Shown in pieces: positions 2,062-25,055 of a DNA stretch of 25,357 nt. The notes below the pieces were generated by a model. The model was not told where the DNA came from. It saw only the letters and a list, made by a program, of their open reading frames with translations, and ran no database searches. Source of the DNA: a virus; the UHGV virus genome UHGV-1360109, one strand, 5' to 3'. The position numbers and the translations under genes are program-made. Each line of letters opens with the position of its first letter. Position 1 is the stretch's first letter.

Positions 2062-4260
2062 ATGGCAGAAAAAAAGATGACTGACTGGCATCGCAAGGTG
2101 CTGTGCAACTTTGATAATGCCTGGTCAGCAACGCAGGATATGCGTGAGCAGATTATTGAGGCTCAACGTTTCGTCCGGGTGTCCGGCGCACAGTGGGAAG
2201 GCAGCACAAACGCTGGTTACTCATTTGATGAAGGCAGGTTTGAGCATTACCCGCGCTTTGAACTGAATAAGATTGCCCGTGAATGTGATCGCATCATTGG
2301 CGAGTATCGACAGAATCGCATCAGCGTTAAATTCAGGCCGAAGGATGACAGGGCATCGGAAGCGTTAGCCGAAAAGATGAACGGCAAATTCCGCGCTGAT
2401 TATCAGGAAACATCCGGTGGCGAAGCGTGTGATAACGCATTTGATGATGCTGTAACGGGCGGATTCGGTTGTTTCCGCATGTGTGCTGATTACGAAGATG
2501 AAATGGATCCGAGTAACGAGCAGCGACGCATCAGCCTTCTTCCTGTTTACGACCCGGCGACATGCGTCTTCTTCGATCAGGACAGCAAGCAATATGACCG
2601 CTCTGATGCTATGTGGGCTATGGAAATGTTCTCCATGACGCCTAAAGCGTTCGAGGCTGAATACCCTGATTCCATCGCGGCAAGTCTTTCTCGTGATGAC
2701 ACTGGCACTCAATATGACTGGTCAACTCCTGATGCTATCTATGTTGGTCGCTACTACGAAGTTCGCATAGAGAAGGTGAAGCTCACAGCATGGCGTAACC
2801 CTGTTAGCGGAGAAACGGCAATCTATGATGAAGAGCAAATCAAAGATATTGTCGACGAGCTGACCGATGGTGCATTCGAACTGATTGGTGAGCGGACAGT
2901 GAAGAAACGCCGAGTTTATTGCGGTCTTCTGTCTGGCGCTGAATGGCTGGAAGAACCGAAGCGTATTCCGGGCGAACATATTCCTCTCATCCCGGTATAT
3001 GGGCGTCGTTCATTTGTTGATAATCAGGAGCGAATCGAAGGCCACGCAGCAAAAGCGATGGATGCACAGCGTCTTGAGAACCTGATGGTTTCCATGATTG
3101 CAGATAACGCTACTCAGGCTGGCGGTGATGGCATTCCTGTAGTTGATGTTGACATGATTCCTGGTCCTCTTGCCACTCATTGGGCGGAGCGCAACAAAAA
3201 GCGCCCGGCGTTCCTGCCGATGGTCAGTCTGAAAAACAAAAACGGAGATATTACTGCGCAGGCTCAGGTCAGCAGTTATACACCTCCGACACAAATGCCT
3301 CCTGCTCTTGCCGGGCTATTGCAGTACACCGGAACGGCTATTCAGAAAATTACAGGTGCGTCGCAGCTTGAGAACATGCCGAGCAACGTCGCCACCGATA
3401 CCGTTGATAGCATCTTTAACCGGATGGACACGCAGTCCTATATCTACATGGACAACATGGCTAAATCCATGCGTCGCGCTGGCGTTGTGTGGCTTTCTAT
3501 GGCGCGTGAGGTCTATGGCAGTGATACGCCGATGCGTATCGTTAATGAGGACGGCAGCGATGACGTGGCGCTGATGACTGGTGAAGTGGTTGACCGTCAG
3601 ACAGGGCAGGTTATCGCGCTTAATGACCTTTCGCAGGGCAACTATGAAGTGACTGTCGATGTCGGTCAGTCGTTCGCTACTCGCCGTGATGCAACGGTTA
3701 AGTCGTTACTTTCCATGCTGGCACTTATCCCACCAGGAACGCAGAAGCACGACCTTGTATCGTCGATGATTCTCGACAATATGGACGGCGAAGGGATGGG
3801 CGACCTTAAAGAATACAACCGCAATCAGTTGCTTCTGTCTGGCGTTATCAAGCCGAGAACGCCTGAAGAACAGCAGATGGTTGAACAGGCGAAACAACAA
3901 CAGGCCAGTCAGCCAGATCCGGCTATGGTTGCAGCGCAAGGTCAGCTTCTTGCAGGTCAGGCTGAATTGCAGAAAGCGCAGAACGAACAGGCAGCCATTC
4001 AGGTTAAAGCATTCCAGGCACAGACTGATGCTCAGGTTGCAGCGGCAAACGTTGTGAAAATCCTCGCATCTGCCGATAGCCAGCAGAAATCTGATATCCG
4101 CGAGGCTCTGAAACTGCTCGGACAGTTCCAGCAACAGCAAGGAGACAATGCCCGTGCTGATGCAGAGCTTGTCCTGAAAAGTCAGGCACAGGGTCATGCG
4201 CAGCGAATGGACATCAGCAGCATCCTGCAAAAATCAACCCAGCAACAATCACAGCAGTAA
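2062..4260 (+). CDS. portal protein (P22 gp1-like)
   Basis: 732 aa, immediately after terL; Gln/Ala-rich C-terminal tail typical of the P22 portal barrel; conserved gene order. Confidence 0.92.
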   Translation: MAEKKMTDWHRKVLCNFDNAWSATQDMREQIIEAQRFVRVSGAQWEGSTNAGYSFDEGRFEHYPRFELNKIARECDRIIGEYRQNRISVKFRPKDDRASEALAEKMNGKFRADYQETSGGEACDNAFDDAVTGGFGCFRMCADYEDEMDPSNEQRRISLLPVYDPATCVFFDQDSKQYDRSDAMWAMEMFSMTPKAFEAEYPDSIAASLSRDDTGTQYDWSTPDAIYVGRYYEVRIEKVKLTAWRNPVSGETAIYDEEQIKDIVDELTDGAFELIGERTVKKRRVYCGLLSGAEWLEEPKRIPGEHIPLIPVYGRRSFVDNQERIEGHAAKAMDAQRLENLMVSMIADNATQAGGDGIPVVDVDMIPGPLATHWAERNKKRPAFLPMVSLKNKNGDITAQAQVSSYTPPTQMPPALAGLLQYTGTAIQKITGASQLENMPSNVATDTVDSIFNRMDTQSYIYMDNMAKSMRRAGVVWLSMAREVYGSDTPMRIVNEDGSDDVALMTGEVVDRQTGQVIALNDLSQGNYEVTVDVGQSFATRRDATVKSLLSMLALIPPGTQKHDLVSSMILDNMDGEGMGDLKEYNRNQLLLSGVIKPRTPEEQQMVEQAKQQQASQPDPAMVAAQGQLLAGQAELQKAQNEQAAIQVKAFQAQTDAQVAAANVVKILASADSQQKSDIREALKLLGQFQQQQGDNARADAELVLKSQAQGHAQRMDISSILQKSTQQQSQQ

Positions 4261-4350
4261 TTAACCAATAACGTGCAATGGCTGTCTTTATGAGGCCTGG
4301 CACCCTATTGCCTTCCGATGGGCTGAACATCGAGTAAACAGGGGTAACAA

Positions 4351-5244
4351 ATGGACCAGATGGCAGAAAACACACCAGAAGTTGAAATAGAAACCGATAC
4401 ATCAGAGCAGATTCCTGATGATGTCGAACTGGCTGAAGAAGTCGAAACAGAAGATGGCAGTGAGTCCTCCGGCAATGATGCAGAGGAAGCTACTGAAACT
4501 GATGACGACGAATCAGAACAGGAATTCTACTTTGGTGACGAAAAGCTGGATTCGCCAACCAGCGAAGATGGCGCTGAGCATGGACTGGTAAAACACCTGC
4601 GCAAGACGATTAAAGAGAAAGACCGCGAGCTGAAAGAGCTGATGCGTCAGTCTCAGAAACCCGTCGAGCAGCAGCCGGTAATCACTCAACCACCGCGAAT
4701 GCCAAAACTGGATGATGAGGACATCGGTTTCGATGAAGAAATCTACCAGCAACGCATGGCTAAGTGGGCAGAGGATAACGGCAAGTACCAGCAACAGGAG
4801 ATGGCTCGCAAGCAGAAGGTGCAGGAGCTTCAGGCTGCCTATCAAGAGCGATTATCCAAATATCAGCAACGTGTTAAGGCTCTCAAGGTTCCTAGCTATC
4901 AGGAAGCTGAACAGGCCGTACTCGAGGAAATCTCCATCGAGACACAAAACGCGATCCTGTTTGAGTCAGAGAAGCCGGAAATCGTTGTTCTGGCACTCGG
5001 TCGCAACGCTGAACTGCGCAAGCAACTGGCAGAAGCTACCAACCCCGTAGCAATTGGTCGTCTGCTGGAACGTATCGAATCGAAGGCCAGAATCATGCCA
5101 AAAGCAAAAACCACGGCAGCCACAACCCCGACAGTTAAGGGGAGCAACGGCGCAGTAATCAATAACCTCGACAAACTGAAAGCCAAAGCGCTGGAAACTG
5201 GTGACTGGACGCCGTATTTCGCCGCTAAAAGGCAAAAAAAATAA
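4351..5244 (+). CDS. scaffolding protein (P22 gp8-like)
   Basis: 297 aa; very acidic N-terminus, coiled-coil-like middle, basic C-terminus (LDKLKAKALETGDW...KRQKK) resembling the coat-binding end of P22 scaffold; sits between portal and coat; AGGGG RBS. Confidence 0.85.
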   Translation: MDQMAENTPEVEIETDTSEQIPDDVELAEEVETEDGSESSGNDAEEATETDDDESEQEFYFGDEKLDSPTSEDGAEHGLVKHLRKTIKEKDRELKELMRQSQKPVEQQPVITQPPRMPKLDDEDIGFDEEIYQQRMAKWAEDNGKYQQQEMARKQKVQELQAAYQERLSKYQQRVKALKVPSYQEAEQAVLEEISIETQNAILFESEKPEIVVLALGRNAELRKQLAEATNPVAIGRLLERIESKARIMPKAKTTAATTPTVKGSNGAVINNLDKLKAKALETGDWTPYFAAKRQKK

Positions 5245-5262
5245 CCTATCGGAGCATTAAGC

Positions 5263-6528
5263 ATGGCTAACCAATTAGTAAAAGACCTTGAAATCATGTT
5301 CGAAAACTACGTTGAAGGCTTTGAGGCCGCCTGCGTAGTTTCCCGTAACGCTAAAAAATTCCGTCCCGGTGATACAGCAATGCAGCGAGTAGGTGATGTT
5401 CTGTATCGTCCGCAGCATTACCACATGAACATTGAGGAGGGCTTGGACCTCAGCGAAAAAACATCAACAGCACTGGTTCAGCGCCTTGTTCCTTCTGTGT
5501 TCAAGGAGCCGAAAAACATTCTGTACACTCTGGATGCGCGTGAAATGCGTGACCCTGAACATAAAACTGAAGCTGGTCGAGCCGCAGGTATGCGCCTTGC
5601 TGCACAGATTGACTCTGACCTGATTTCCATGGTCACGCAGCGTGCTACTAACGTGGTCGCAGTTCCTGACTCAGCAACTGGCTCGCGTGGCCTTGCCTTG
5701 TGGAATGGTGCGGCAGATATTGATGCCACCATGACGGCGATTGGTGTGCCGCAGGGTATCAACCGTCGCTCTTTCTGGAACCCCTTCAACTACAAAGACC
5801 TTGCTGGCGAGCTTGGTCACCGTGCCTACGCTCAGGGCGCAACCATGACAGCATACGAAAAAGCGCAAATCCCTCCGGTTGCTTCCTTCGATAGCTACAA
5901 GACCGATATTTCCGGTCGTGTTCCGGAGGGTAAGACTGTAGAAAATGGCATTAAGCTGACTGAAGAACCTAAGCACAAGGTTGAAGCGAAAGATGTTAAT
6001 GGTATGCCTGTTGATAACCGACAGGGGACAATTAAGGTATCTGCTGCGGGTTTGCAGGTTGGCGATGCGTTTACCATCGCAGGTGTGAATTCCGTACACC
6101 AGATCACCAAAGATACCACCGGGCAACCGCAGGTATTCCGCGTTCTGGCAGTAGACACAGCAGGAACCACCGTAACAATCTCTCCGAAAATTCTGCCGCC
6201 TAACAACACGGATACCGCCAGCCGTCCATATGCAAACGTTGATGCTAATGCGGCAAATAATGCAGTAATCACCATTCTCAACAAAAAAGCCGCACCGGCT
6301 AACCTGTTCTGGGCTGATGGTTCTGTTGAGCTGATGTACGGCAAACTGGCGTTCCCGACTGGTCAGGGTCCACAGGTAATGACTGCAACCACCGAGCAGG
6401 GCGCTACGCTGATCATGTCTTACGCCTTCGACCACATCAAAGGCGTAACCACTGCGCGTTTCACCACTCTGTACGGTTGCTCTGTACTTGTTCCTGAATA
6501 TACGGGCATCGTTATTGCCGGGCAGTAA
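5263..6528 (+). CDS. major capsid (coat) protein, P22 gp5-like
   Basis: 421 aa after the scaffold gene; segment YANVDANAANNAVITILNKKAAPANLFWADGS resembles the P22 coat YANV...FWADD region; followed by a strong terminator. Confidence 0.9.
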   Translation: MANQLVKDLEIMFENYVEGFEAACVVSRNAKKFRPGDTAMQRVGDVLYRPQHYHMNIEEGLDLSEKTSTALVQRLVPSVFKEPKNILYTLDAREMRDPEHKTEAGRAAGMRLAAQIDSDLISMVTQRATNVVAVPDSATGSRGLALWNGAADIDATMTAIGVPQGINRRSFWNPFNYKDLAGELGHRAYAQGATMTAYEKAQIPPVASFDSYKTDISGRVPEGKTVENGIKLTEEPKHKVEAKDVNGMPVDNRQGTIKVSAAGLQVGDAFTIAGVNSVHQITKDTTGQPQVFRVLAVDTAGTTVTISPKILPPNNTDTASRPYANVDANAANNAVITILNKKAAPANLFWADGSVELMYGKLAFPTGQGPQVMTATTEQGATLIMSYAFDHIKGVTTARFTTLYGCSVLVPEYTGIVIAGQ

Positions 6529-14187: not shown

Positions 14188-14553
14188 ATGAAAAAAGTTA
14201 ACATTGGAAACGTACCAAAGATGCTCGTTCCGCTCTTTGAGAGCGGTACAATTGTGTTTTGTAGAGACTTTCCAGAATGGCAACGCCTGCATCAAAAACT
14301 TGGTGTGGACGTGCAGGACTCGGACGCCAACGGAGCGTCTCATACAATGAGCAGCGAGAATGGTGTTTTGCATGTGATAGGCGTGTTCAATGGCAAACTA
14401 TCTACTATTGCCCATGAGTGCGCTCACATGGCATTCGATATCTGCTCAAGGGTCGGTGTTGATGTTGAACCAGGAAGAGCCAACGAGACTTACTGCTACT
14501 TAATGAGCAGGCTTGTTGAGTTCTGCGAGCGACATATCAAAAAGCCGGAGTGA
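14188..14553 (+). CDS. small putative zinc metallopeptidase (HExxH motif), family unassigned
   Basis: 121 aa from ATG 14188 (MKKVNIGNVPKMLVPLFESG...); HECAH motif in IAHECAHMAFDICSRVGVDVEPGRANE with Glu 14 and 20 residues downstream; the ORF-track start at 14149 is a TTG. Confidence 0.55.
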   Translation: MKKVNIGNVPKMLVPLFESGTIVFCRDFPEWQRLHQKLGVDVQDSDANGASHTMSSENGVLHVIGVFNGKLSTIAHECAHMAFDICSRVGVDVEPGRANETYCYLMSRLVEFCERHIKKPE

Positions 14554-14566
14554 CCCGGCTTGATTA

Positions 14567-14746
14567 TTACTTTTTGCTGTCTGGAGTTCGCTTATCCAAT
14601 ACCCAGCCATGACCTGGCTTTGTTGTTGGTGGAAGCCTTTCGTTGTCCTTGACGGTGGCAAAATTGTCTTTCTTACCGCCGCGTGGGCCAACTTCTTGGT
14701 ATATTCCGCCGTTTTTTCCTGTGTTTTCACCTGGTTTTTTCGCCAT
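14567..14746 (-). CDS. YjzC-like small protein
   Basis: 59 aa (MAKKPGENTGKNGGIYQEVGPRGGKKDNFATVKDNERLPPTTKPGHGWVLDKRTPDSKK); the G..GIY.EVGP.GG ... LPPT ... W pattern resembles the YjzC-like family as I remember it; GAGGT RBS 7 nt upstream of ATG 14746. Confidence 0.55.
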   Translation of the reverse strand: MAKKPGENTGKNGGIYQEVGPRGGKKDNFATVKDNERLPPTTKPGHGWVLDKRTPDSKK

Positions 14747-14782
14747 GATATACCTCAACATGCACCCGTTATTGGGCGATTA

Positions 14783-14811: not shown

Positions 14812-14837
14812 TATGGTCCAAAAAAGGTAAAAATTAA

Positions 14838-14859
14838 CCCACCGTCAGGTGGGTTTTTT
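14838..14859. terminator. bidirectional rho-independent terminator
   Basis: CCCACC-GTCA-GGTGGG hairpin; T-run on the plus strand (14854-14859) and a U-rich tract on the minus strand (complement of AAAAAGGTAAAAATTAA); lies about 25 nt downstream of the ClpP-like gene stop. Confidence 0.7.
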
Positions 14860-14884
14860 ATAAGGAGTAATCATGATTTACCCA

Positions 14885-15421
14885 TCAAACAACCCACCAG
14901 TTTGCCTGATTGGATGCCAGCCTTGCAGTTTTTATGGAATTAATTATGCCATGCTCAAGAGCCTTGTTAGCATCCAAAATGGTCGAGTCTGCTATCAGGG
15001 ATGCCCACCTAATATGGGTTCCGATGTCGATATTGAACGTCTCAACGAAGCGATCAAGATCGTTATCGAGGCATTTCCCGTACTCTCTCAATCTGGCATG
15101 GTCGGCGGCTGGGGAGGCAAAGCACCATAATAGAGGATGTAACAGGAATCTTGATAATGGGTTTGCGAAACGTTCTGAGCCAGCCAGGAAAACGATATTA
15201 GCTATGGATTCAACATTGCTTATGTTGTGAGTTCTAACGGTAACAGGGAGTGACTTAAGAAAGTTATACGCAGTAAAGCCAGCGGCAGTTTCCCCTCCCT
15301 GACTTGATATATGGATATTTAATTCAGTTGCGCCTTGAGATAATGCGGTGAGACAGTGGTTCTGAAGTTGCCCAACAGTGGCAGTGTTAACGGGGCATAA
15401 GAAATGAATTGTGTGCAGCAT
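14885..15421 (-). CDS. ClpP/SppA-fold serine peptidase homologue (cargo gene, co-transcribed with mnt)
   Basis: 178 aa; ELNIHISSQGGETAAGFTAYNFLKSLPVTVRTHNISNVESIANIVFLAGSERFANPLSRFLLHP aligns by eye with E. coli ClpP [67 protein letters not shown]; candidate nucleophile Ser and His are in place; start ATG shares one base with the mnt stop (TAATG). Confidence 0.75.
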   Translation of the reverse strand: MLHTIHFLCPVNTATVGQLQNHCLTALSQGATELNIHISSQGGETAAGFTAYNFLKSLPVTVRTHNISNVESIANIVFLAGSERFANPLSRFLLHPLLWCFASPAADHARLREYGKCLDNDLDRFVETFNIDIGTHIRWASLIADSTILDANKALEHGIINSIKTARLASNQANWWVV

Positions 15422-15675
15422 TATTTATCATCCTTGCCATAAATCTTTTTAAGTGTCTCAAACACAACGGCCTTGAACTGCTCTGCTTGCTGATCAGCCA
15501 AGCGTTCAGCTTCGTCTCGATAGCCTGCAATCGGTGATGGCTTTGAGAGAGCATCCTGAACGATTTGTAATAACTCAGAGTTCATTGACCTTCCGTTAGC
15601 CTCTGCTCTTAATTTCAATTTTTCTCTTACTTCCAAAGGCATACGGAAGTTAAAGTGCGGATCGTTTCTAGCCAT
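15421..15675 (-). CDS. mnt: Mnt repressor (ribbon-helix-helix)
   Basis: 84 aa; MARNDPHFNFRMPLEVREKLKLRAEANGRSMNSELLQIVQDALSKPSP closely resembles P22 Mnt; GGGGTGA RBS; divergent from arc across the operator region. Confidence 0.92.
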   Translation of the reverse strand: MARNDPHFNFRMPLEVREKLKLRAEANGRSMNSELLQIVQDALSKPSPIAGYRDEAERLADQQAEQFKAVVFETLKKIYGKDDK

Positions 15676-15697: not shown

Positions 15698-15751
15698 TTG
15701 ACATGATAGAAGCACTCTACTATGTTCTCAATAGGTCCACAGTGGACCTAT
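15698..15751. promoter_or_regulatory. immI control region: Pant promoter with arc and mnt operators
   Basis: TTGACA (15698-15703), 17-bp spacer, TATGTT (15721-15726); arc-operator-like ATGATAGAAGCACTCTACTAT (15703-15723); perfect 21-bp palindrome ATAGGTCCAC-A-GTGGACCTAT (15731-15751) matching the P22 mnt operator. Confidence 0.85.
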
Positions 15752-15765
15752 ATTGTGAGGTAAAT

Positions 15766-15924
15766 ATGAAAGGAATGAGCAAAATGCCGCAGTTCAATTT
15801 GCGGTGGCCTAAAGAAGTATTGGATTTGGTGCGTAAGGTGGCGGAAGAGAACGGGCGATCTGTTAACTCTGAGATTTACAAGCGAGTGTTGGACAGCCTG
15901 AAGAGAGAGGGGATAACGGTATGA
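15766..15924 (+). CDS. arc: Arc repressor (ribbon-helix-helix)
   Basis: 52 aa from ATG 15766 (MKGMSKMPQFNLRWPKEVLDLVRKVAEENGRSVNSEIYKRVLDSLKREGITV), close to P22 Arc; GAGG RBS; the ORF-track start at 15703 is an upstream extension running through the operators. Confidence 0.92.
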   Translation: MKGMSKMPQFNLRWPKEVLDLVRKVAEENGRSVNSEIYKRVLDSLKREGITV

Positions 15925-16142
15925 GGTTTATTGAGGTTGATGAGATTGGCTATGAGAATGCACTTGGTAGAGGTAAATCTTTAGTTAACATTGATGGCAT
16001 TGAATCGATAAGGAGTGGTGAATTTACGGAGATCAGAATGATGTCAGGCGGAATCATTCCTTGCCGTGATTCAGTAGAGTCAATCAAATCAAAAATGAGT
16101 GGTCAGTGGCTTTATAGCTACAGTGACTTACAAAAACAGTGA
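15921..16142 (+). CDS. small hypothetical protein inserted between arc and ant
   Basis: 73 aa; ATG 15921 overlaps the arc stop (ATGA); no family recognised; arc and ant are adjacent in P22. Confidence 0.5.
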   Translation: MRFIEVDEIGYENALGRGKSLVNIDGIESIRSGEFTEIRMMSGGIIPCRDSVESIKSKMSGQWLYSYSDLQKQ

Positions 16143-16205
16143 AGCCCCAACTGCGGTAACAGTCAGGGCTTCGGTATCGTAAAACCACGCATAGGAATTA
16201 ACGAC

Positions 16206-17129
16206 ATGACGAGTGTAGCAATTGCAGAACATACAATCAACGTTCCATTCCACGGAACAAATCTCTTTTTGGTCAGCATTAACAATGAACCTTACGTTCC
16301 TATGAAACCCGTTGTAGAAGGCATGGGTATGGTTTGGGCTGCTCAATTTGTTAAATTAAAACAGAGATTTGTCAAAGGTATTTCGGAAATCGAAATACCT
16401 TCTGCTGGCGGTAAACAGTTAATGATATGCCTTGCCTTTCGTAAGTTTGCGGCTTGGCTTTCAAGCATTCAGCCAAACAAAGTCCGCCCTGAAATCCGCG
16501 ACAAGGTAATCCAGTATCAGGAAGAGTGTGACGATGTGCTCTACGAGTACTGGACTAAAGGCTATGTAGTTAACCCACGCAAATCTAAAAAGGCGTTGCC
16601 GGGTAAAATCACCACTGAACAGCAGGAAGCCATTAAACAACTCGTCATGAGTCGCGGTCAGTCTCTGCCAAAAGAAAAACAGGCTAAGGCGATGATCACC
16701 ATGTGGTCGTCACTGAAATCCCATTTTGGATGTTCGTACAAAGAAATCAGTGAGGAGCAGTTTACAGAAGCACTGTCACTTGCAGCTCGAGTTCCGCTTG
16801 AAGGTGAGTTCATCGGCAAACAAGAGAAGAAAACCAACGAGCTTTCTGCAAAAGAAGCAAACAGCCTTGTATGGTTATGGGATTATGCCAACCGCTCACA
16901 GGCATTATTCCGCGAACTGTATCCGGCGCTAAAACAAATTCAATCGAACTATTCCGGCAGATGCTACGACTACGGTCATGAATTCTCGTATGTTATCGGA
17001 ATGGCGAGAGATGTTTTAATCAACCATACACGAGATGTTGATATTAATGAGCCAGACGGACCAACGAATCTTTCCGCATGGATGAGACTTAAGAATAAAG
17101 AATTACCTCCTTCAGTACATAACTACTGA
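16206..17129 (+). CDS. ant: antirepressor Ant
   Basis: 307 aa, close to P22 Ant (300 aa); position after arc; AGGA RBS; followed by a strong terminator. Confidence 0.82.
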
Positions 17130-17229: not shown

Positions 17230-20175
17230 ATGACAGACATTACAGCCAATGTTGTGGTAAGCATGCCTTCGCAACTCTTCACTATGGCGCGTTCTTTTAA
17301 AGCCGTAGCTAATGGCAAAATTTATATCGGTAAAATTGACACTGATCCTGTAAATCCAGAAAACCAGATTCAGGTCTATGTGGAGAATGAAGACGGTTCT
17401 CACGTTCCTGTTTCGCAACCAATAATCATTAACGCTGCTGGATATTCTGTATATAACGGACAGATTGCCAAATTCGTTACCGTGCAAGGCCATTCTATGG
17501 CTGTTTATGATGCGTATGGTGCGCAGCAGTTCTATTTTCCTAATGTGCTGAAGTATGACCCTGATCAACTACGGCAGCAATTAGAAGACCCAGATGGAGC
17601 GAATAAATACCCAAAACTTCAGATAGCAAGATGGAGAGACAGTTATGATGTAAGAGGTTGGGGGGCTATTGGTGATGGTGTTCATGATGATACATCAGCT
17701 CTATCAGAATTACTTTCTGTTGCAACAGGTGGTGAAAAGATAGATGGGCGAGGGCTTACTTTTAAAGTATCAACTCTTCCGGATGTCAGTCGATTTAAAA
17801 ATGCTCGTTTTTTATTTGAGAGAATACCGGGCCAGCCTCTTTTTTATGCTTCTGAAGATTTTATCCAGGGAGAGTTATTTAAAATTACAGATACACCGTG
17901 GTACAACGCCTGGACGCAGGATAAAACGTTTGTATATGACAATGTCATCTATGCGCCTTTTATGGCTGGAGACCGCCATGGTGTAAATAACCTCCATGTT
18001 GCATGGGTTCGCTCAGGAGATGACGGGAAGACCTGGACAACGCCGGAATGGCTTACAGATTTACATGAAAACTATCCCACAGTTAACTATCACTGCATGA
18101 GTATGGGGGTTGTCAGAAATCGCCTTTTTGCTGTAATTGAGACGCGGACCGTGAGAGGAAATAAACTGCAGGTTGCAGAGTTGTGGGATCGCCCAATGAG
18201 TCGCAGCCTTCGCGTTTATGGTGGTATAACGAAAGCAGCAAATCAGCAAGTCGCTTATATTCGCATTACTGATCACGGATTATTTGCTGGTGATTTTGTC
18301 AACTTCTCAAACTCTGGTGTTACAGATGTTACCGGGAATATGACGGTGACTACTGTTATTGATAAAAATACCTTTACAGTTACGACGCAAAATACCCAGG
18401 ATGTGGATCAGAATAACGAGGGTAGATACTGGAGTTTTGGTACATCATTTCACTCGTCACCATGGAGAAAAACCAGTCTTGGAACTATTCCTTCTTTTGT
18501 TGACGGAAGCACTCCTGTTACTGAGATTCACAGTTTTGCGACGATTAGCGATAACAGTTTTGCTGTTGGCTACCATAATGGTGATATTGGTCCACGCGAG
18601 CTTGGGATACTCTATTTCTCTGATGCTTTCGGTTCTCCTGGTAGCTTTGTTCGCAGACGCATACCTGCAGAATATGAGGCGAATGCATCTGAGCCATGTG
18701 TAAAATATTATGATGGCATTCTGTATCTGACGACCAGGGGGACATTAAGTACTCAACCCGGTAGTTCATTGCACAGAAGCTCTGATTTAGGTACATCATG
18801 GAATTCTCTTCGCTTCCCAAATAATGTTCATCACTCAAACCTTCCTTTTGCCAAAGTTGGCGATGAGCTGATTATTTTTGGCAGTGAGCGCGCATTTGGT
18901 GAGTGGGAAGGAGGAGAACCTGATAACCGTTATGCAGGAAATTATCCAAGAACATTTATGACCAGAGTTAACGTCAATGAGTGGAGTCTGGATAATGTAG
19001 AGTGGGTTAATGTTACTGATCAGATTTATCAGGGCGGAATAGTTAACTCTGCGGTTGGTGTTGGTTCAGTTTGTATCAAAGACAACTGGCTGTACTACAT
19101 TTTCGGTGGGGAAGATTTTCTAAACCCATGGAGCATAGGGGATAACAACAGAAAATATCCTTATGTTCACGATGGTCACCCGGCTGATTTGTATTGTTTC
19201 AGGGTGAAAATTAAACAGGAAGAATTTGTTTCAAGGGATTTTGTCTACGGAGCCACTCCTAACAGAACGCTTCCTACTTTTATGTCGACGTCAGGCGTGA
19301 GGACGGTTCCTGTACCCGTTGATTTCACAGATGATGTTGCCGTCCAGTCACTGACTGTCCATGCAGGTACATCAGGACAAGTTCGCGCGGAAGTCAAACT
19401 TGAGGGTAATTACGCCATTATTGCGAAGAAAGTACCGTCTGATGATGTTACCGCTCAGAGATTAATCGTTAGCGGCGGTGAAACAACGTCTTCAGCAGAT
19501 GGTGCAATGATAACGTTGCATGGTTCCAGAAGCAGTACTCCACGTCGCGCGGTATATAACGCACTCGAACATCTTTTTGAGAACGGAGATGTTAAACCTT
19601 ATCTTGATAATGTAAATGCTCTTGGTGGTCCGGGAAACAGGTTCTCGATAGTTTATCTTGGCTCCAATCCTGTGGTTACCAGTGACGGAACATTAAAGAC
19701 AGAGCCGGTCTCTCCTGACGAAACATTGCTGGATGCCTGGGGTGACGTCAGGTATATCGCTTATAAATGGCTGAACGCTGTCGCTATAAAGGGGGAAGAA
19801 GGGGCGAGGATACATCATGGTGTAATCGCGCAGCAACTTCGTGATGTTCTTATTTCTCACGGACTCATGGAAGAAGAAAGCACAACATGCCGCTATGCGT
19901 TTCTTTGCTATGACGATTATCCCGCAGTATATGATGACGTCATTACTGGCCAAAGGGAAATGCCGCTGACTGATAATGACGGGAGCATCATTGTTGATGA
20001 GGATGATAATCCAGTGATGGTAATGGAAGACATCATTGAGCGCGTTGAAATAACGCCAGCAGGATCTAGATGGGGGGTCAGGCCTGATCTCTTATTCTAT
20101 ATCGAGGCGGCATGGCAGCGCAGAGAAATGGATAAGATAAAAGCTAGGTTAGACTTAATAGAAGGGAAGCACTAA
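17230..20175 (+). CDS. tailspike: P22 gp9-like head-binding N-terminus fused to an endosialidase body with a C-terminal intramolecular chaperone domain
   Basis: 981 aa; first ~110 aa ([59 protein letters not shown]...[15 protein letters not shown]...VLKYDPDQ) match the P22 tailspike N-terminus; Asp-box motifs SGDDGKTW and SSDLGTSW; TSDGTLK near the C-terminal ~160 aa fits the Ser-Lys auto-cleaving chaperone pattern; GGAG RBS. Confidence 0.88.
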
Positions 20176-20321
20176 ATGTTTCGTTGGCGTCAAAAATATG
20201 AACTGCTCACATAAAGAAGTAAGTACATTGGCAAAAAACATTGACGTCAACGAAATTAAATATAAAACATCATGCAGACATATTACCAATATTAATATAA
20301 GGTAATAAAAATATAATTTAC

Positions 20322-20348
20322 AAAAAAGGCCCGTTGGAAGCGACGGGC
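20322..20348 (-). terminator. minus-strand rho-independent terminator beyond attP (possible tI/sib analogue)
   Basis: Minus strand reads GCCCGT-CGCTTCCA-ACGGGC followed by CTTTTTT; sits where leftward transcripts through int and att would end. Confidence 0.5.
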
Positions 20349-20654
20349 ATTAACCGCGGTAATGGATAAATTATTAATGTTTTTAGATTGTGAACGATAT
20401 CATATTGTGCGGAAGTAGTGAAGTAACCATGTAAAATGATTGTTTCATAGCCTATGAGACACACAAGGCTTTGTGCTCTTCGATAGTTGTTAAGGCGGAT
20501 CACTCTACCTTCTCATCAATCCAGTCCGCCCCCACTGCATCATTTCTCTGCGCTTATCGAGATACTGAGCATGGTTGTAAATTCAACTAACCCAGTCCGT
20601 TGACAAAAAATTAGCGCAAGAGGACAAAAAATCACCTTGCGCTAATGCTCTGCC

Positions 20655-20885
20655 TCAGGTCACTAATACTATCTAAGTAGTTGATTCATAGTGACTGGAT
20701 ATGTTGTGTTTTGTCGCGTTTTGCAGTCTATTATTTAATCATTAAGTAATCTAATACTATGATTTTTAAATTATTTATGTGGTTTTGTCATCCTTAAGGT
20801 GAATAAGTTGTATATTTAAAATATCTTTTGTTATCAATGAATTAATGTAAGCAGGTCATTATTAGTCAAAATAAAATCATTTGTC
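20655..20885. other. lambda-like attP region (arm-type Int sites); core not pinpointed
   Basis: CAGGTCACTAATACTATCTAAGTAGTTGATTCATAGTGACTGGATATGTTGTGTTTT (P arm) and AGGTCATTATTAGTCAAAATAAAATCATTTG (P' arm, overlapping the int 3' end) closely match lambda attP arm sequences; the central ~100 bp differs from lambda. Confidence 0.7.
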
Positions 20886-21950
20886 GATTTCAATTTTGTC
20901 CCATTCCCGTCCACGGCTGTCCCTATACCGCGCCGCCATTGAATCTGATTTATGCCCGAGAAGACGTTGAGCAAACTTATCGCCAATCTGGTTCCGGTAT
21001 AGCCTCGCTGACAGGCTACGCAGTTCATGGAATGTTGGCGGGTTTCCATCAAATGAGAGTCCAGATGCATTTCTCGCCTTTGTAAAATACTTTGATACTG
21101 TTTTCGGGGAAAGCGGATCGTGATGCTTTGATGCGATTATAGTTTCACTGCTGCTGGCCTCCCTGCATTTCTGTAGTGTATCAGCCAATGAGATATTGAG
21201 CGCGTCAATCGTTAGCGTTAGCGGAATGGCGAGTTTAGCCCCTGTTTTACTCTGTTCAATGTGAAGATGGTTGTCGTTTATGTCTGACCATTTCATTCTG
21301 CACAAATCGCCGACTCTCTGCCCTGTAACGACGGCCAAATCCATCGCCAGCCTTAGCCAGATAGGGAGAGGTTCGGCTGCATGGTAAATCTCGACATACT
21401 CATTAGCTGTCAGCCTTGAGCGCCTTACTTCTGACTTTGCTGTACGGGTTGCTGTTACCGGATTCGTTGCCACATGCCCCTCGGCTATTGCTTCACGAAA
21501 AACGTCAACAAGGGTTGACCTGATTAATTTTGCGGAAGCTGCTTTACCTTCCGCTACGTAGGTGTTTAGCATTGCTGCCACATCTTTCGTTGATATGTCA
21601 GTGAGCGGTTTGTCCGGCAATTTTCTTCGGATTGCCCTGATTTTGCTGGCGTAGTCGAGTAGAGTTTTCGGCCTGATCCCCCTTTCGGTGAGGATTCTTT
21701 CATATCGGTCAAGCCACACATGAAGAGTGATTGCGTCACCGCCTTTAATTCTGTCTATCAGTGATTTGCGTCCGCTGTCTGAGAGTAACTCAATATTGGC
21801 CTGTATTGCTTCAGTGATTGCTATCCTCCTGTCTCGGCCTAATCCAAACTCTTTACCCGTCCTTGGGTCCCTGTAGCAGTAATATCCATTGTTTCTTATA
21901 TAAAGGTTAGGGGGTAAATCCCGGCGCTCATGACTTCGCCTTCTTCCCAT
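20877..21950 (-). CDS. int: integrase, lambda Int family tyrosine recombinase
   Basis: 357 aa; N-terminus MGRRRSHERRDLPPNLYIRNNGYYCYRDPRTGKEFGLGRDRRIAITEAIQAN and C-terminus HELRSLSARLY...LLGHKSD...YRD.RGREWDKIEI match lambda Int as I recall it. Confidence 0.95.
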   Translation of the reverse strand: MGRRRSHERRDLPPNLYIRNNGYYCYRDPRTGKEFGLGRDRRIAITEAIQANIELLSDSGRKSLIDRIKGGDAITLHVWLDRYERILTERGIRPKTLLDYASKIRAIRRKLPDKPLTDISTKDVAAMLNTYVAEGKAASAKLIRSTLVDVFREAIAEGHVATNPVTATRTAKSEVRRSRLTANEYVEIYHAAEPLPIWLRLAMDLAVVTGQRVGDLCRMKWSDINDNHLHIEQSKTGAKLAIPLTLTIDALNISLADTLQKCREASSSETIIASKHHDPLSPKTVSKYFTKARNASGLSFDGNPPTFHELRSLSARLYRNQIGDKFAQRLLGHKSDSMAARYRDSRGREWDKIEIDK

Positions 21951-22146
21951 TTCTGATCCTCTTCAAAAGGCTACCTGTTACTGGTCGATTTAAGTCAACC
22001 TTTACCGCTGATTCGTGGAACAGATACTCTCTTCCATCCTTAACCGGAGGAGGGAATATCCTGCATTCGCGCACCCATCGACGAACTGTTTCAAGGCTTC
22101 TTGGGCGTCGCTGGCGAGCGTTCCACTCCTGAAGTGTCAAGTACAT
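21928..22146 (-). CDS. xis: excisionase
   Basis: 72 aa (MYLTLQEWNARQRRPRSLETVRRWVRECRIFPPPVKDGREYLFHESAVKVDLNRPVTGSLLKRIRNGKKAKS), essentially lambda Xis; overlaps the int start as in lambda. Confidence 0.95.
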   Translation of the reverse strand: MYLTLQEWNARQRRPRSLETVRRWVRECRIFPPPVKDGREYLFHESAVKVDLNRPVTGSLLKRIRNGKKAKS

Positions 22147-22203
22147 CGCAAAGTCTCCGCAATTACTCGCAAGGGAACGAGTAGTGGTTGATTTTTCTCC
22201 AAC

Positions 22204-22223
22204 AAAAAAGGAGCCGAAGCTCC
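22204..22223 (-). terminator. minus-strand rho-independent terminator between the antirepressor-like gene and xis
   Basis: Minus strand reads GGAGC-TTCG-GCTCC followed by TTTTTTG. Confidence 0.6.
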
Positions 22224-22231
22224 TTTGATGA

Positions 22232-22855
22232 TTAAAATTCGAATTGTCTCGCCCGAAGGCTTTTCAACATTGGTCTTGCCCGTTCGAAAACGGCGCTTGC
22301 CTGGTCAAGTCGTGTCGCCTCCCTGAGCAGTACATCTCTGTTTTTCGTCACCGCATAGAAGGTTTCAAACGCAATGTCATACAGCTTACTCGCGTATGAT
22401 GAGTTAAGTTCCTTCATTATCGGGTACAGGCGTTTGCAGATGTCCTGTGCATTCTCCATCTGTACCTGCATGTAGCAGAGGAGGATGATTTCCTCGTCTG
22501 TGAATTGCTGCGCTGGTTGCATGCTGCGAAGTTTCTTTTCGCACTCGATGAAGTATCGGCGTATCTGGCGGCCTTTTTCGTTGCGCTCGACCATCGCAGT
22601 TTCTTTGGCCGTATCGAGGGTGAGGTGATAGTCTTTGCTACGGCGATCGCCTCCTCGACCTTTGATTTCCCGATTTGGGGAAACCAAAATATAGTCCTGA
22701 TTTTCAACGAAACCATATTCAGCAATGCGTTCTGTAATCCACGATGCAAAGCGTTTACCTACCCCAAGAAAAGTATGTAAATCGCGAGCATTAACGAGAA
22801 GAGTGGTTTCGTTGGCGATAGTGCCGTTGAATACGGGGATGAGTTGAATAGCCAT
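22232..22855 (-). CDS. antirepressor-like protein (Bro-N/AntA-type N-terminal domain)
   Basis: 207 aa from ATG 22855 with AGGAG 9 nt upstream; N-terminus MAIQLIPVFNGTIANETTLLVNARDLHTFLGVGKRFASWITERIAEYGFVENQDYI resembles phage AntA/Bro-N domains; ORF-track start at 22891 is a longer alternative. Confidence 0.65.
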   Translation of the reverse strand: MAIQLIPVFNGTIANETTLLVNARDLHTFLGVGKRFASWITERIAEYGFVENQDYILVSPNREIKGRGGDRRSKDYHLTLDTAKETAMVERNEKGRQIRRYFIECEKKLRSMQPAQQFTDEEIILLCYMQVQMENAQDICKRLYPIMKELNSSYASKLYDIAFETFYAVTKNRDVLLREATRLDQASAVFERARPMLKSLRARQFEF

Positions 22856-23196
22856 AATCATGACTCCTGACGTTTTAGTATTGACTGCCACCTTAGTGGG
22901 GTGGCGGGCTTCAACTACCGCGTCAGACGGCGGAGCTTATTTCCCGAAAGGGTGTTCTATTAGGCTCTCTCGACCCGCCATAGATATGGCGATACCTGTA
23001 AACAGGCATAAAAAAGCCGCAAAGCTATCGGGTGCGGTTGACCGCTGACGTTGTAGTGCGGTCAGTATGCGATAGCTCTGGCGGATTTGTCAAATCATGT
23101 AGCCTTTATCCTGCTGTAAGCCGCGCCATTCGGGATTTTCCCCATATTTGGGGAAAACTATCTGCGAAGTATTCACCTTTGACGGCAAGTTGCAGG

Positions 23197-23484
23197 TTAG
23201 CCACGACCTTCCTCCTTTGGCTTGTGAATTTGTATCGTCATGCCGCTTTGAGTGGTGACTACAATGACAGAACCAGGCTGAAGGCTGTTAAGATTGAATG
23301 CTTCGTAAAATGAATCCAATGCCAGTGCTTTTTTATTCTTTCGGTTCCACCAACGCCATCCCTTGCTACAGGCTACACTGACAATCCACTGTCCACTCCT
23401 GTAAGCCATATAAAACCAGATGAGCAAAACCTGAAGGAAGGCTATCCAGTCAATAATCGTATATTTCGCGAAGGAGTCCATCAC
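23197..23484 (-). CDS. small membrane protein, unknown function
   Basis: 95 aa; one hydrophobic segment (IIDWIAFLQVLLIWFYMAY) followed by a basic patch; ATG overlaps the stop of the upstream DUF551 gene (ATGA). Confidence 0.5.
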   Translation of the reverse strand: MMDSFAKYTIIDWIAFLQVLLIWFYMAYRSGQWIVSVACSKGWRWWNRKNKKALALDSFYEAFNLNSLQPGSVIVVTTQSGMTIQIHKPKEEGRG

Positions 23485-24254
23485 TTCACCTCCTGCGGCG
23501 GTTCTGGTAGCGGCATCCAGTGGGTTACGAGAACATACTCGACATCACCCTCAGGACTGTCATAGAACAATCCAGAGTGGGATTCGTAGAATGCGATGTA
23601 ACGCCACCCTGAATGAGTTTGAACAACAACTTCCTGCCCGTCATCCGGCATTCGCTCACTACAGCTTATCCAACCATCCGGAGTAACCGGATAGTTGCGC
23701 ATTGCGACCTTAAATGCCTCATAGAAGCAACCTTTCAGATTGTTGAACTGACGCCCATTTAGAGGGCCGTGTTCTGTCAGCATGTTGTGTAATTTCCATG
23801 TCGCGTCGTTTACTTCGTTGGATGACATGGGAGGCAACTTGTAAGCCTGGCTTACAGGTTCGGCACTATGAAGCATGGCTGCGCGGCAGGCGTTCCAACC
23901 ACGAGTCTTGCCTAACTGGTAAACATCTGATGGAGGCATGTAATCAATATCATTGCCATGATAGTTTTCTTCTTCTGGTAGAGCATCGGGAACTTTCAGT
24001 GCTGGCGGTGCGGTGTATAACGGAATCCTGCTTTCTCCGCTTATCTTGTCTGTGACATCAGACCAAATGCGACCGCGACTTATGGCGCTATAGATTAAGT
24101 CTTCGAGCATCCTTTTTCCTATGAAAGCCACAGGCTCTGCTTCCAGCGATGCCAGTGCAATTCGTGCCAGTTCCATTTGTTCGCCACGGGTAAGTCCGTT
24201 ATCAAGCGGATTTTTAATGAATAATTCGATACGTTCTTTGGTAATAGTGGTCAT
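23481..24254 (-). CDS. DUF551-domain protein
   Basis: 257 aa; C-terminal block WISCSERMPDDGQEVVVQTHSGWRYIAFYESHSGLFY...VTHWMPLPEPP is typical of the DUF551 domain common in lambdoid early-left regions; AAGGTGA RBS. Confidence 0.72.
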   Translation of the reverse strand: MTTITKERIELFIKNPLDNGLTRGEQMELARIALASLEAEPVAFIGKRMLEDLIYSAISRGRIWSDVTDKISGESRIPLYTAPPALKVPDALPEEENYHGNDIDYMPPSDVYQLGKTRGWNACRAAMLHSAEPVSQAYKLPPMSSNEVNDATWKLHNMLTEHGPLNGRQFNNLKGCFYEAFKVAMRNYPVTPDGWISCSERMPDDGQEVVVQTHSGWRYIAFYESHSGLFYDSPEGDVEYVLVTHWMPLPEPPQEVK

Positions 24255-24256
24255 AG

Positions 24257-24448
24257 CTATTTCACCTTAATCTCAACATTTCGCAGCTTTAGCTCTACTG
24301 GCAGGTCTGACTTTCCTGTTAATGCTAATGCGAGATTTTCTGGAGTAATGAGAGCAGTTATTGTTTTCCCCATCGCCAGACGAATAATCATTCGTATCTC
24401 GCAATCGTCACATGCTCCAGGTCGAACAATTGATATTTGTCCATTCAT
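24257..24448 (-). CDS. small hypothetical protein
   Basis: 63 aa from ATG 24448 (MNGQISIVRPG...), with AGGAG 8 nt upstream and start 1 nt after the Ea22-like stop; the ORF-track start at 24502 would overlap the upstream gene by 53 nt. Confidence 0.45.
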   Translation of the reverse strand: MNGQISIVRPGACDDCEIRMIIRLAMGKTITALITPENLALALTGKSDLPVELKLRNVEIKVK

Positions 24449-24449
24449 C

Positions 24450-25055
24450 TCACGCTCCTTTGATGCGAATGCCAGCGACGCGTAATGCGTGTTCCAGGTC
24501 AATCAGGTAAAGCCAACTGCCATTTTCTTTAGGTATCATGACATGTCGCTCATCTGCATTTATCGGGTGTCCATATCGAAGGTCGTAGCGAGTCGGTAAT
24601 TGAACTTCCCGCGCTTCCAGTTCAGCAATACGCTTCTCTGCGGCCTCTGCCCTGCATTGTTCCCGTTGGAACATTTTGTGGGTGCGGTCGAGCGCCTCAA
24701 GTCTAGCTGCTGATGTTTTCTCTTCTGCTTCAAGCTCAACGCGCAGCTTCCCTACCGTTAGCGCAATATCCTCGTTCTCCTGGTCGCGGGATTTGATGTA
24801 TTGCAGGTTTCTTTCCCGTTCATCCAGCAGCGCCTGCACTACTTCAGGGTTGAAAGCTGCGATATAACGAGCGTTGTTCTCTGCGTTTTTCTGTTCGTCG
24901 AATCCTGGCCAGTCGACAATATCTCCGTGATGATTATCACCTGGTGTGTGTACGGCGTACGTGCCGTATTTGCCCGGCGAAATAAATGCGACCCATTCGC
25001 CTTGTGTTGCCTGTTTTGCTATCTCACGCAGTGCCTGATAGTTAATTTTGGTCAT
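24450..25055 (-). CDS. Ead/Ea22-like protein
   Basis: 201 aa; N-terminus MTKINYQALREIAKQATQGEW is the characteristic Ea22-like start; coiled-coil-like middle. Confidence 0.75.
   Translation of the reverse strand: MTKINYQALREIAKQATQGEWVAFISPGKYGTYAVHTPGDNHHGDIVDWPGFDEQKNAENNARYIAAFNPEVVQALLDERERNLQYIKSRDQENEDIALTVGKLRVELEAEEKTSAARLEALDRTHKMFQREQCRAEAAEKRIAELEAREVQLPTRYDLRYGHPINADERHVMIPKENGSWLYLIDLEHALRVAGIRIKGA

Follow-up and report, generated by a model that had tools for sequence, protein, structure and literature searches.

In the 25,357-nucleotide (nt) virus genome UHGV-1360109, the whole of which we call the window below, we found that the immI region of a P22-like phage carries a gene for a 178-amino-acid (aa), N-terminally truncated peptidase of the ClpP family (14885..15421, minus strand), directly downstream of the repressor gene mnt. 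This clpP-like gene is genuine, encodes a ClpP fold and is under purifying selection, and its active-site Ser-His pair is invariant among its homologues. It lies in a mobile cassette, and its enterobacterial relatives occupy several kinds of prophages. PpClpP1 of Pseudomonas plecoglossicida, a truncated ClpP that forms mixed barrels with a canonical paralogue, is the solved structure that the protein matches best. We read the phage gene as a moron for an accessory ClpP subunit of the PpClpP1 type that would be expressed in the lysogen and act on host proteolysis, an interpretation that in our estimate has the same chance of proving right as of proving wrong.

A genuine gene with a ClpP fold

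The 178-aa protein matches the Pfam family CLP_protease (PF00574, peptidase S14) with an E-value of 2.2e-11 and 44.4 bits (gathering cut-off 20.2). The match spans residues 24-165, corresponding to model positions 37-180 of 182. The protein also matches PHROG_94 (7e-21), and its scores against all NCBIfam ClpP equivalogs lie far under their cut-offs. A sequence search of solved structures placed 9uxt_A first (E=1.6e-35, residues 3-175), with canonical ClpPs at ~1e-7. The AlphaFold2 model, a monomer prediction built on 43 homologues, reached a predicted local distance difference test (pLDDT) score of 94.1 and a predicted template-modelling (pTM) score of 0.90. Searched with Foldseek, it recovered ClpP structures, with a template-modelling (TM) score of 0.93 and a root-mean-square deviation of 1.6 Å for 9UXT and a TM score of 0.83 for E. 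coli ClpP. An earlier note, made from the letters of the window and aligned by eye, had proposed a ClpP fold for this protein, and the profile match, the sequence match to solved ClpPs and the structure comparison all bear that proposal out.

The frame itself is well conserved. Relative to the 80%-identical copy in a Pectobacterium parmentieri prophage, the gene has a ratio of nonsynonymous to synonymous substitution rates (dN/dS) of 0.078, with 131 nucleotide differences distributed as 34, 15 and 82 over the first, second and third codon positions. The low dN/dS indicates strong purifying selection on the clpP-like frame. The antisense open reading frames (ORFs) within the gene are not conserved.

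Active site and docking surface

In the computed alignment, Ser72 and His95 of the phage protein correspond to Ser97 and His122 of E. coli ClpP (b0437), the same pairing that the earlier note had reached by hand. Both residues are invariant in 184 of 184 homologues (65 enterobacterial sequences and 119 of the Pseudomonas clade), and the oxyanion Gly of E. coli ClpP is kept as well. The third catalytic residue could not be placed in the earlier note because the protein has no such Asp: the column of Asp171 is occupied by Ser146 here, by Ala, Ser, Gly or Thr in the phage clade and by Pro in Pseudomonas, and never by Asp. Among the acidic residues of the handle helix, E113 and D121 are invariant and D107 is nearly so.

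Identity to E. coli ClpP is ~20%, and the protein begins at about residue 37 of the E. coli precursor; the first ~36 residues, with the propeptide and the axial loops, are missing. Six residues of E. coli ClpP (Y60, Y62, F82, I90, L114 and L189), which we take to be the hydrophobic pocket for the IGF loops of ClpX and ClpA, align with N35, H37, S57, H65, N87 and K164, so that the pocket positions are mostly polar in the phage protein. The two proteins thus share the fold and the Ser-His pair, whereas the catalytic Asp, the axial loops and the docking pocket that mark a canonical ATP-dependent ClpP subunit are all absent from the phage protein. As far as the alignment can tell, the features for docking to AAA+ partners have been lost.

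Relationship to PpClpP1 and other accessory ClpP subunits

The structure 9UXT is that of PpClpP1, which is 40% identical to the phage protein over the full length. PpClpP1 has an N-terminal truncation of more than 15 residues and forms a homotetradecamer with an axial pore of 42.7 Å; in its 'Ser-His-Pro' active site Ser and His are essential and Pro is dispensable, and its peptidase activity is 13-fold below that of the canonical paralogue (PMC12900304, PLoS Pathog 2026). PpClpP1 itself does not bind ClpX; together with canonical ClpP it forms a stable heterotetradecamer that is more active, also with ClpX (PMC12900304). The phage protein resembles PpClpP1 in its N-terminal truncation, in length (178 vs 183 aa), in the kept Ser and His and in the lost third Asp, and the hydrophobic AAA+ docking pocket is missing in both. 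The two differ in context, PpClpP1 being chromosomal and encoded in a neighbourhood of KGG-repeat and DUF6555 genes, whereas the gene in the window is phage-borne and joined to mnt. Prophages are not mentioned in the study of PpClpP1 (PMC12900304), and a prophage origin of PpClpP1 itself was ruled out, its clade being chromosomal.

Accessory ClpP subunits in P. aeruginosa tune ClpXP assembly and phenotypes (PMC13056064). By analogy, the phage protein may be likened to P. aeruginosa ClpP2 and Listeria ClpP1, each a second, weakly active ClpP subunit that enters mixed tetradecamers and tunes ClpXP output (PMC13056064). Both of these are host-encoded and distant from the phage protein (~20-24% identity), and the structure 4ryf is among its fold matches. 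ClpP2 and ClpP1 are full-length proteins with Ser-His-Asp or Ser-His-Asn active sites.

Probable coupling to mnt

The gene upstream (15421..15675, minus strand) encodes an 84-aa Mnt protein, identified with Pfam by an Arc-type ribbon-helix-helix N-terminal domain (Arc, 3.4e-27) and a Mnt C-terminal domain (Repressor_Mnt, 3.8e-12). The mnt stop TAA (15423-15421) and the ATG of the clpP-like gene (15421-15419) have one base in common, forming a TAATG junction (15419..15423, minus strand) that was read directly from the window and agrees with the overlap described in the earlier note. Nine nt upstream of this ATG is a Shine-Dalgarno-like AAGGA (15431..15435, minus strand), contained in the last mnt codons (GGC AAG GAT GAT AAA TAA, encoding G-K-D-D-K). 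We compared the junction across four contexts in which the clpP-like gene is joined to mnt, namely the window, the Pectobacterium parmentieri prophage, Escherichia phage phiv205-1 and PhiR12_1. The junction AAGGAT(G/A)A(T/A)AAATAATG is kept in all four, across very different mnt alleles, and all four Mnt proteins end in YGKD(D/N/E)K despite very different DNA-binding domains. The Mnt proteins of P22 and of Gally, a P22-like prophage of E. coli LF82, both without a clpP-like gene, end in KKTT and KKPT, respectively. The conserved junction and Mnt tail are the pattern expected from selection for translational coupling.

Upstream of mnt, a promoter scan and homology to the Pmnt annotated in P22 located Pmnt (TTGAGA-17-TATCAT; 15703..15731, minus strand), which overlaps the divergent Pant (TTGACA-17-TATGTT; 15698..15726, plus strand), located by the same scan and P22 homology. 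The Arc operator (15703..15723) is identical to that of P22 at 21 of 21 positions and the Mnt operator (15727..15749) at 22 of 23. The promoter scan detected no promoter-like site between mnt and the clpP-like gene. Together with the kept junction, the lack of an internal promoter and the P22-matching Pmnt strongly favour the view of the earlier note that the two genes form one operon read from Pmnt, as far as anatomy can indicate this.

The end of the operon is less simple than the single terminator that had been placed after the gene. A perfect 8-bp G+C-rich hairpin with T-rich tails on both strands (14836..14855) does stand 30 nt past the stop of the clpP-like gene, at the left edge of the conserved cassette; its stem is imperfect in P22, where it overlaps the mnt 3' end. 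However, the mnt terminator annotated in P22 comes after orf59a, and its homologue is kept further on in the window (14539..14561, minus strand; 23/23 identical), so that the transcript may read through the 14836-14855 hairpin. This hairpin may stop only part of the mnt-clpP transcripts, and the operon could be either mnt-clpP or mnt-clpP-orf59a. The possible third gene is an orf59a-like gene of 64 aa (14567..14761, minus strand), recognised as an ORF, by its PHROG match (phrog_3202) and by comparison with P22, where orf59a is second in the mnt operon.

In the immI region of P22, Mnt is made in the lysogen and represses Pant, and Arc represses both promoters. Coupled to a gene that is made in the lysogen, the clpP-like cistron should be made there too, and the sequence of the window points to its expression in that state. 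RNA sequencing (RNA-seq) of E. coli LF82 found the mnt operon of Gally expressed and induced 50-fold in macrophages.

A mobile cassette in varied genomic contexts

Comparison with P22 showed that a block of ~620 bp (14860..15479), comprising the clpP-like gene and the final ~20 codons of mnt, takes the place of 42 bp in P22, between flanks that are 97% and 87% identical to P22. Among E. coli genomes the conserved block extends over 14836-15461, from the hairpin through the gene and ~40 nt of the mnt 3' end, and the mnt alleles diverge beyond it. Promoters, operators and distal terminator are the same as in P22 immI, and the gene occupies the same prophage-expressed accessory region, which in P22 neighbours sieA. 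P22 has no gene between mnt and orf59a, whereas in the window the clpP-like cistron is added there and Mnt has another C-terminal tail. The annotation of several E. coli genomes places a YafO-family type II toxin gene directly beside the pair of clpP-like and Arc-family genes, an arrangement that points to the left flank of the cassette as one more variable accessory slot.

The enterobacterial clade comprises 68 clusters and was prophage-borne wherever examined. Copies joined to mnt are those of the four contexts compared above, and in the lambda-like PhiR12_1 the whole ant-arc-mnt-clpP block lies between the tail genes L and K. More distant members are solitary genes in other prophages and always antisense to the surrounding late genes. 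In Klebsiella, solitary copies lie between the lysis cassette and the terminase in three different prophage backgrounds; a Klebsiella cluster of 57% identity stands for 206 sequences. Further solitary copies were found in one E. coli contig, in Rahnella and Enterobacter, in Chromobacterium (between lysis and tail-fibre genes), in Pantoea (inside a Mu-like tail module) and in a betaproteobacterial metagenome-assembled genome (beside a lambda-type terminase). No conserved partner gene or AAA+ gene stands beside the solitary copies in the contexts examined. Upstream of the Klebsiella copy is a promoter-like site (10/12), and 22 nt past the stop of the gene is a terminator-like hairpin; the counts of such sites are not above chance, and only their positions are suggestive. 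An obligate link to Arc/Mnt across the family was thus ruled out: it holds only in P22-like immI contexts, and the coupling to mnt from which the earlier note started is lineage-specific, not a general trait of the family. Inserted relative to P22 and Gally, antisense to late genes in every context and with conserved cassette boundaries, the gene has the genomic properties of a moron.

The gene was identified in 176 of 5,426 complete E. coli genomes, in 126 of them at a coverage of at least 80% (~2-3%), and always on the chromosome; E. coli CE10 and AR_0017 are among the strains with the cassette. There the Prokaryotic Genome Annotation Pipeline (PGAP) names it 'ATP-dependent Clp protease proteolytic subunit', beside an 'Arc family DNA-binding protein'.

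At 90% identity the Pseudomonas clade falls into more than 213 clusters, whose proteins nearly all have 183 aa; the clade is chromosomal, and so is a copy in Massilia. At the Pseudomonas loci the gene has conserved neighbours on its own strand, a DUF6555 gene and one or two genes for KGG-repeat stress proteins. This neighbourhood of the PpClpP1-type gene hints at a stress or stationary-phase role, which the 2026 structural paper does not discuss. Truncated ClpP-like proteins of ~30% identity were also observed in Alphaproteobacteria, Acidobacteria, Candidate Phyla Radiation (CPR) bacteria and a Nitrosotenuis archaeon, with the common motif THN(I/V)G.VDSIAN.IF.AG. Their presence in those groups indicates that the truncated family is much broader than Pseudomonas and enterobacterial prophages.

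Proposed role in the lysogen

We propose that Pmnt transcribes the clpP-like gene as the second cistron of the mnt operon, and that its translation would be coupled to that of mnt via the TAATG junction and the Shine-Dalgarno sequence inside the last mnt codons. Synthesis of the product would then accompany that of Mnt, which takes place in the established lysogen. If PpClpP1 is a fair guide, the product would act as a Ser-His peptidase of weak intrinsic activity, form a tetradecamer with a wide pore and be unable to dock ClpX or ClpA itself. It may form mixed tetradecamers with the canonical ClpP of the host and in this way alter the output of ClpXP and ClpAP. Possible payoffs include stress fitness, stability of lysogeny and exclusion of other phages.

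Several points weigh against such a role as an accessory subunit. An identity of 40% is no guarantee that oligomeric state or hetero-oligomerisation carry over from PpClpP1, and the third active-site position is Pro there and Ser here. The partner in the lysogen would be E. coli ClpP, which is far more distant from the phage protein than PpClpP1 is, and the evidence for a heterocomplex comes from a single study (PMC12900304). The RNA-seq data of LF82 say nothing on the clpP-like gene, since Gally does not carry it. The residues assigned to the docking pocket are presumed from the ClpP literature. Expression, product and phenotype would have to be projected by analogy for any phage-borne member.

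A more far-reaching version is that temperate phages of the Enterobacterales have captured a truncated accessory ClpP, express it from a lysogeny promoter and build hybrid barrels with host ClpP, reprogramming host proteolysis for the benefit of the phage. We regard this version as speculative and rather doubtful. In such a barrel one ring would dock ClpX or ClpA and the other would be open, and the benefit could be, for example, a faster removal of ClpXP-sensitive replication or regulatory proteins of rival phages, or altered stress and induction thresholds.

Alternative explanations

The protein could instead be a stand-alone superinfection-exclusion or anti-phage protease, an open-pore barrel that needs no unfoldase and works independently of host ClpP. 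Its targets would be unfolded or disordered proteins of incoming phages, such as ejection proteins, which enter unfolded, or early regulators. The position of the gene fits such a function, in a prophage-expressed island between gene 16 and immI that is the place of sieA in P22, and so do the solitary copies, which are antisense to late genes and lie between lysis and terminase genes, where morons or defence genes are typically found. PpClpP1 combines a pore of 42.7 Å with a measure of peptidase activity of its own (PMC12900304), but that activity is low, and the chromosomal relatives in Pseudomonas and Massilia are found amid stress genes (KGG, DUF6555), not in defence islands. A search of PADLOC-DB v2 returned 0 families at E<=0.1 for the protein and likewise no match for four neighbours, which ruled out the known defence systems that this database models. 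We consider an exclusion protease unlikely.

A second possibility is that the protein is a dedicated component of immI that degrades leaky Ant (or Arc) and so locks in lysogeny, which would explain why ant, arc, mnt and the clpP-like gene travel together. The four-gene block has indeed moved as a unit into a lambda-like phage, and phages of both E. coli and Pectobacterium, whose mnt alleles differ, have the gene joined to mnt. Against this, members of 44-58% identity are solitary, with no Arc, Mnt or Ant gene within 4-6 kb, P22 and Gally run immI without a clpP-like gene, and the Pseudomonas relatives are chromosomal. A dedicated immI component is in our judgement improbable.

A ribbon-helix-helix gene that overlaps the start of the gene downstream is also the classic type II layout of a toxin-antitoxin pair, with Mnt as the antitoxin and the clpP-like protein as the toxin. 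However, the operators and promoters that go with this Mnt are those of P22 and mark it as a genuine immI repressor, and over-production of PpClpP1 in E. coli was accomplished with no toxicity reported (PMC12900304). The pairing is moreover not obligate: solitary copies are common and occur in Klebsiella, Chromobacterium, Pantoea, Pseudomonas and Massilia, which ruled out this very improbable reading.

A ClpP-type prohead maturation protease, or its remnant, deserves the least credence of all and was ruled out: the ClpP-like core that phage head maturation proteases share is detectable by profile, the best PHROG match (phrog_94) and one GenBank record carry the name 'head maturation protease', and many viral ClpP-like models superpose on the predicted structure, but the protein scores 49.3 bits against a cut-off of 120 in the NCBIfam model Clp_rel_HeadMat (NF045542), consists of a protease core without scaffold or capsid fusion, and is encoded outside the head module (head genes at 2062-6528, plus strand) and on the opposite strand, the same gene being placed amid tail genes in PhiR12_1 and, in other prophages, between lysis and terminase genes. 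P22-type heads are built on an uncleaved, recycled scaffold and have no need for a protease. The earlier note had called a maturation role unlikely, and the wrong module and strand, the score and the chromosomal location of the nearest relatives lead to the same conclusion.

Other features of the window

The window is that of a P22-like phage, with a Sf6-type small terminase, P22-type portal and coat proteins, a K1-specific endosialidase tailspike and a lambda-type integrase, and as a whole it presumably resembles the E. coli K1 phage CUS-3. On the right side of mnt and divergent from it are arc (52 aa; 15766..15924, plus strand; ORF and Pfam) and the antirepressor gene ant (307 aa, P22_AR_N and P22_AR_C; 16206..17129, plus strand; ORF and profiles).

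Between arc and ant we detected a 73-aa ORF (15921-16142, plus strand; phrog_11805, E=2.8e-53) whose ATG overlaps the arc stop (ATGA). P22 has no counterpart for this stretch (~15905-16139 in the window), and phiv205-1 and the Pectobacterium prophage have a small gene at the same position. With this ORF beside arc and the clpP-like gene beside mnt, each arm of immI has one cistron more than in P22, apparently translated by coupling. Positions 16140-16175 are identical (36/36) to the terminator region of the P22 sar antisense RNA and include a 14-bp minus-strand terminator-like hairpin (16172-16141). Control of ant by the Sar antisense RNA appears, from this identity, to be kept despite the ORF inserted upstream.

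The place of sieA in P22 (13768-14553) is taken here by two different genes. The first, on the minus strand, is an ORF with a match to phrog_2651 (3e-60) over its last 116 aa, and the second, on the plus strand, is an ORF that matches phrog_1365 (1e-39). The two overlap as listed, and the true start of the first is probably internal. Neither had a PADLOC match.

In the product of the tailspike gene (17230-20175, plus strand) a P22-type head-binding domain is joined to an endosialidase that is complete, with beta-propeller, beta-barrel, tail-spike domain and S74 chaperone. Such a tailspike indicates a CUS-3-like phage that is specific for the polysialic-acid capsule of K1. The minus-strand region 20877-25055 begins with the integrase (20877-21950), directly after the tailspike, and continues with an AntA/P22_AR_C antirepressor-like gene (22232-22891), a DUF551 protein and an Ead/Ea22-like protein. 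A tailspike followed by an integrase is the order that a phage genome has when circular or excised; an integrated prophage is ordered differently. The AntA/P22_AR_C gene is a second gene of antirepressor type, beyond immI. No tandem repeats were found in 20000-21000.

Significance

The assignment of the fold is already present in public annotation, and the 40%-identical homologue was characterised in 2026. New is the phage-borne context of a truncated accessory ClpP; the literature searched contains no description of a phage-borne ClpP of the PpClpP1 type or of an mnt-clpP operon. Our results add a cistron to the classic P22 immI paradigm and put right two names under which databases list the protein misleadingly, 'ATP-dependent Clp protease proteolytic subunit' and 'head maturation protease'. 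E. coli, the reference organism for ClpXP and ClpAP, is treated as if it had one ClpP only. With the gene described here, about 126-176 of 5,426 complete E. coli genomes encode a second subunit of the ClpP family, of a type that in Pseudomonas joins canonical ClpP in mixed barrels and raises ClpX-dependent degradation. Should this subunit be inert or redundant, the moron cassette to which it belongs would still be well defined and mobile. If the phage version behaves like PpClpP1, it would be a lysogenic-conversion factor that acts on regulated proteolysis of the host, a class undescribed in the literature searched, and if hybrid barrels do form, ~2-3% of E. coli strains would run a two-subunit ClpP system supplied by a prophage.

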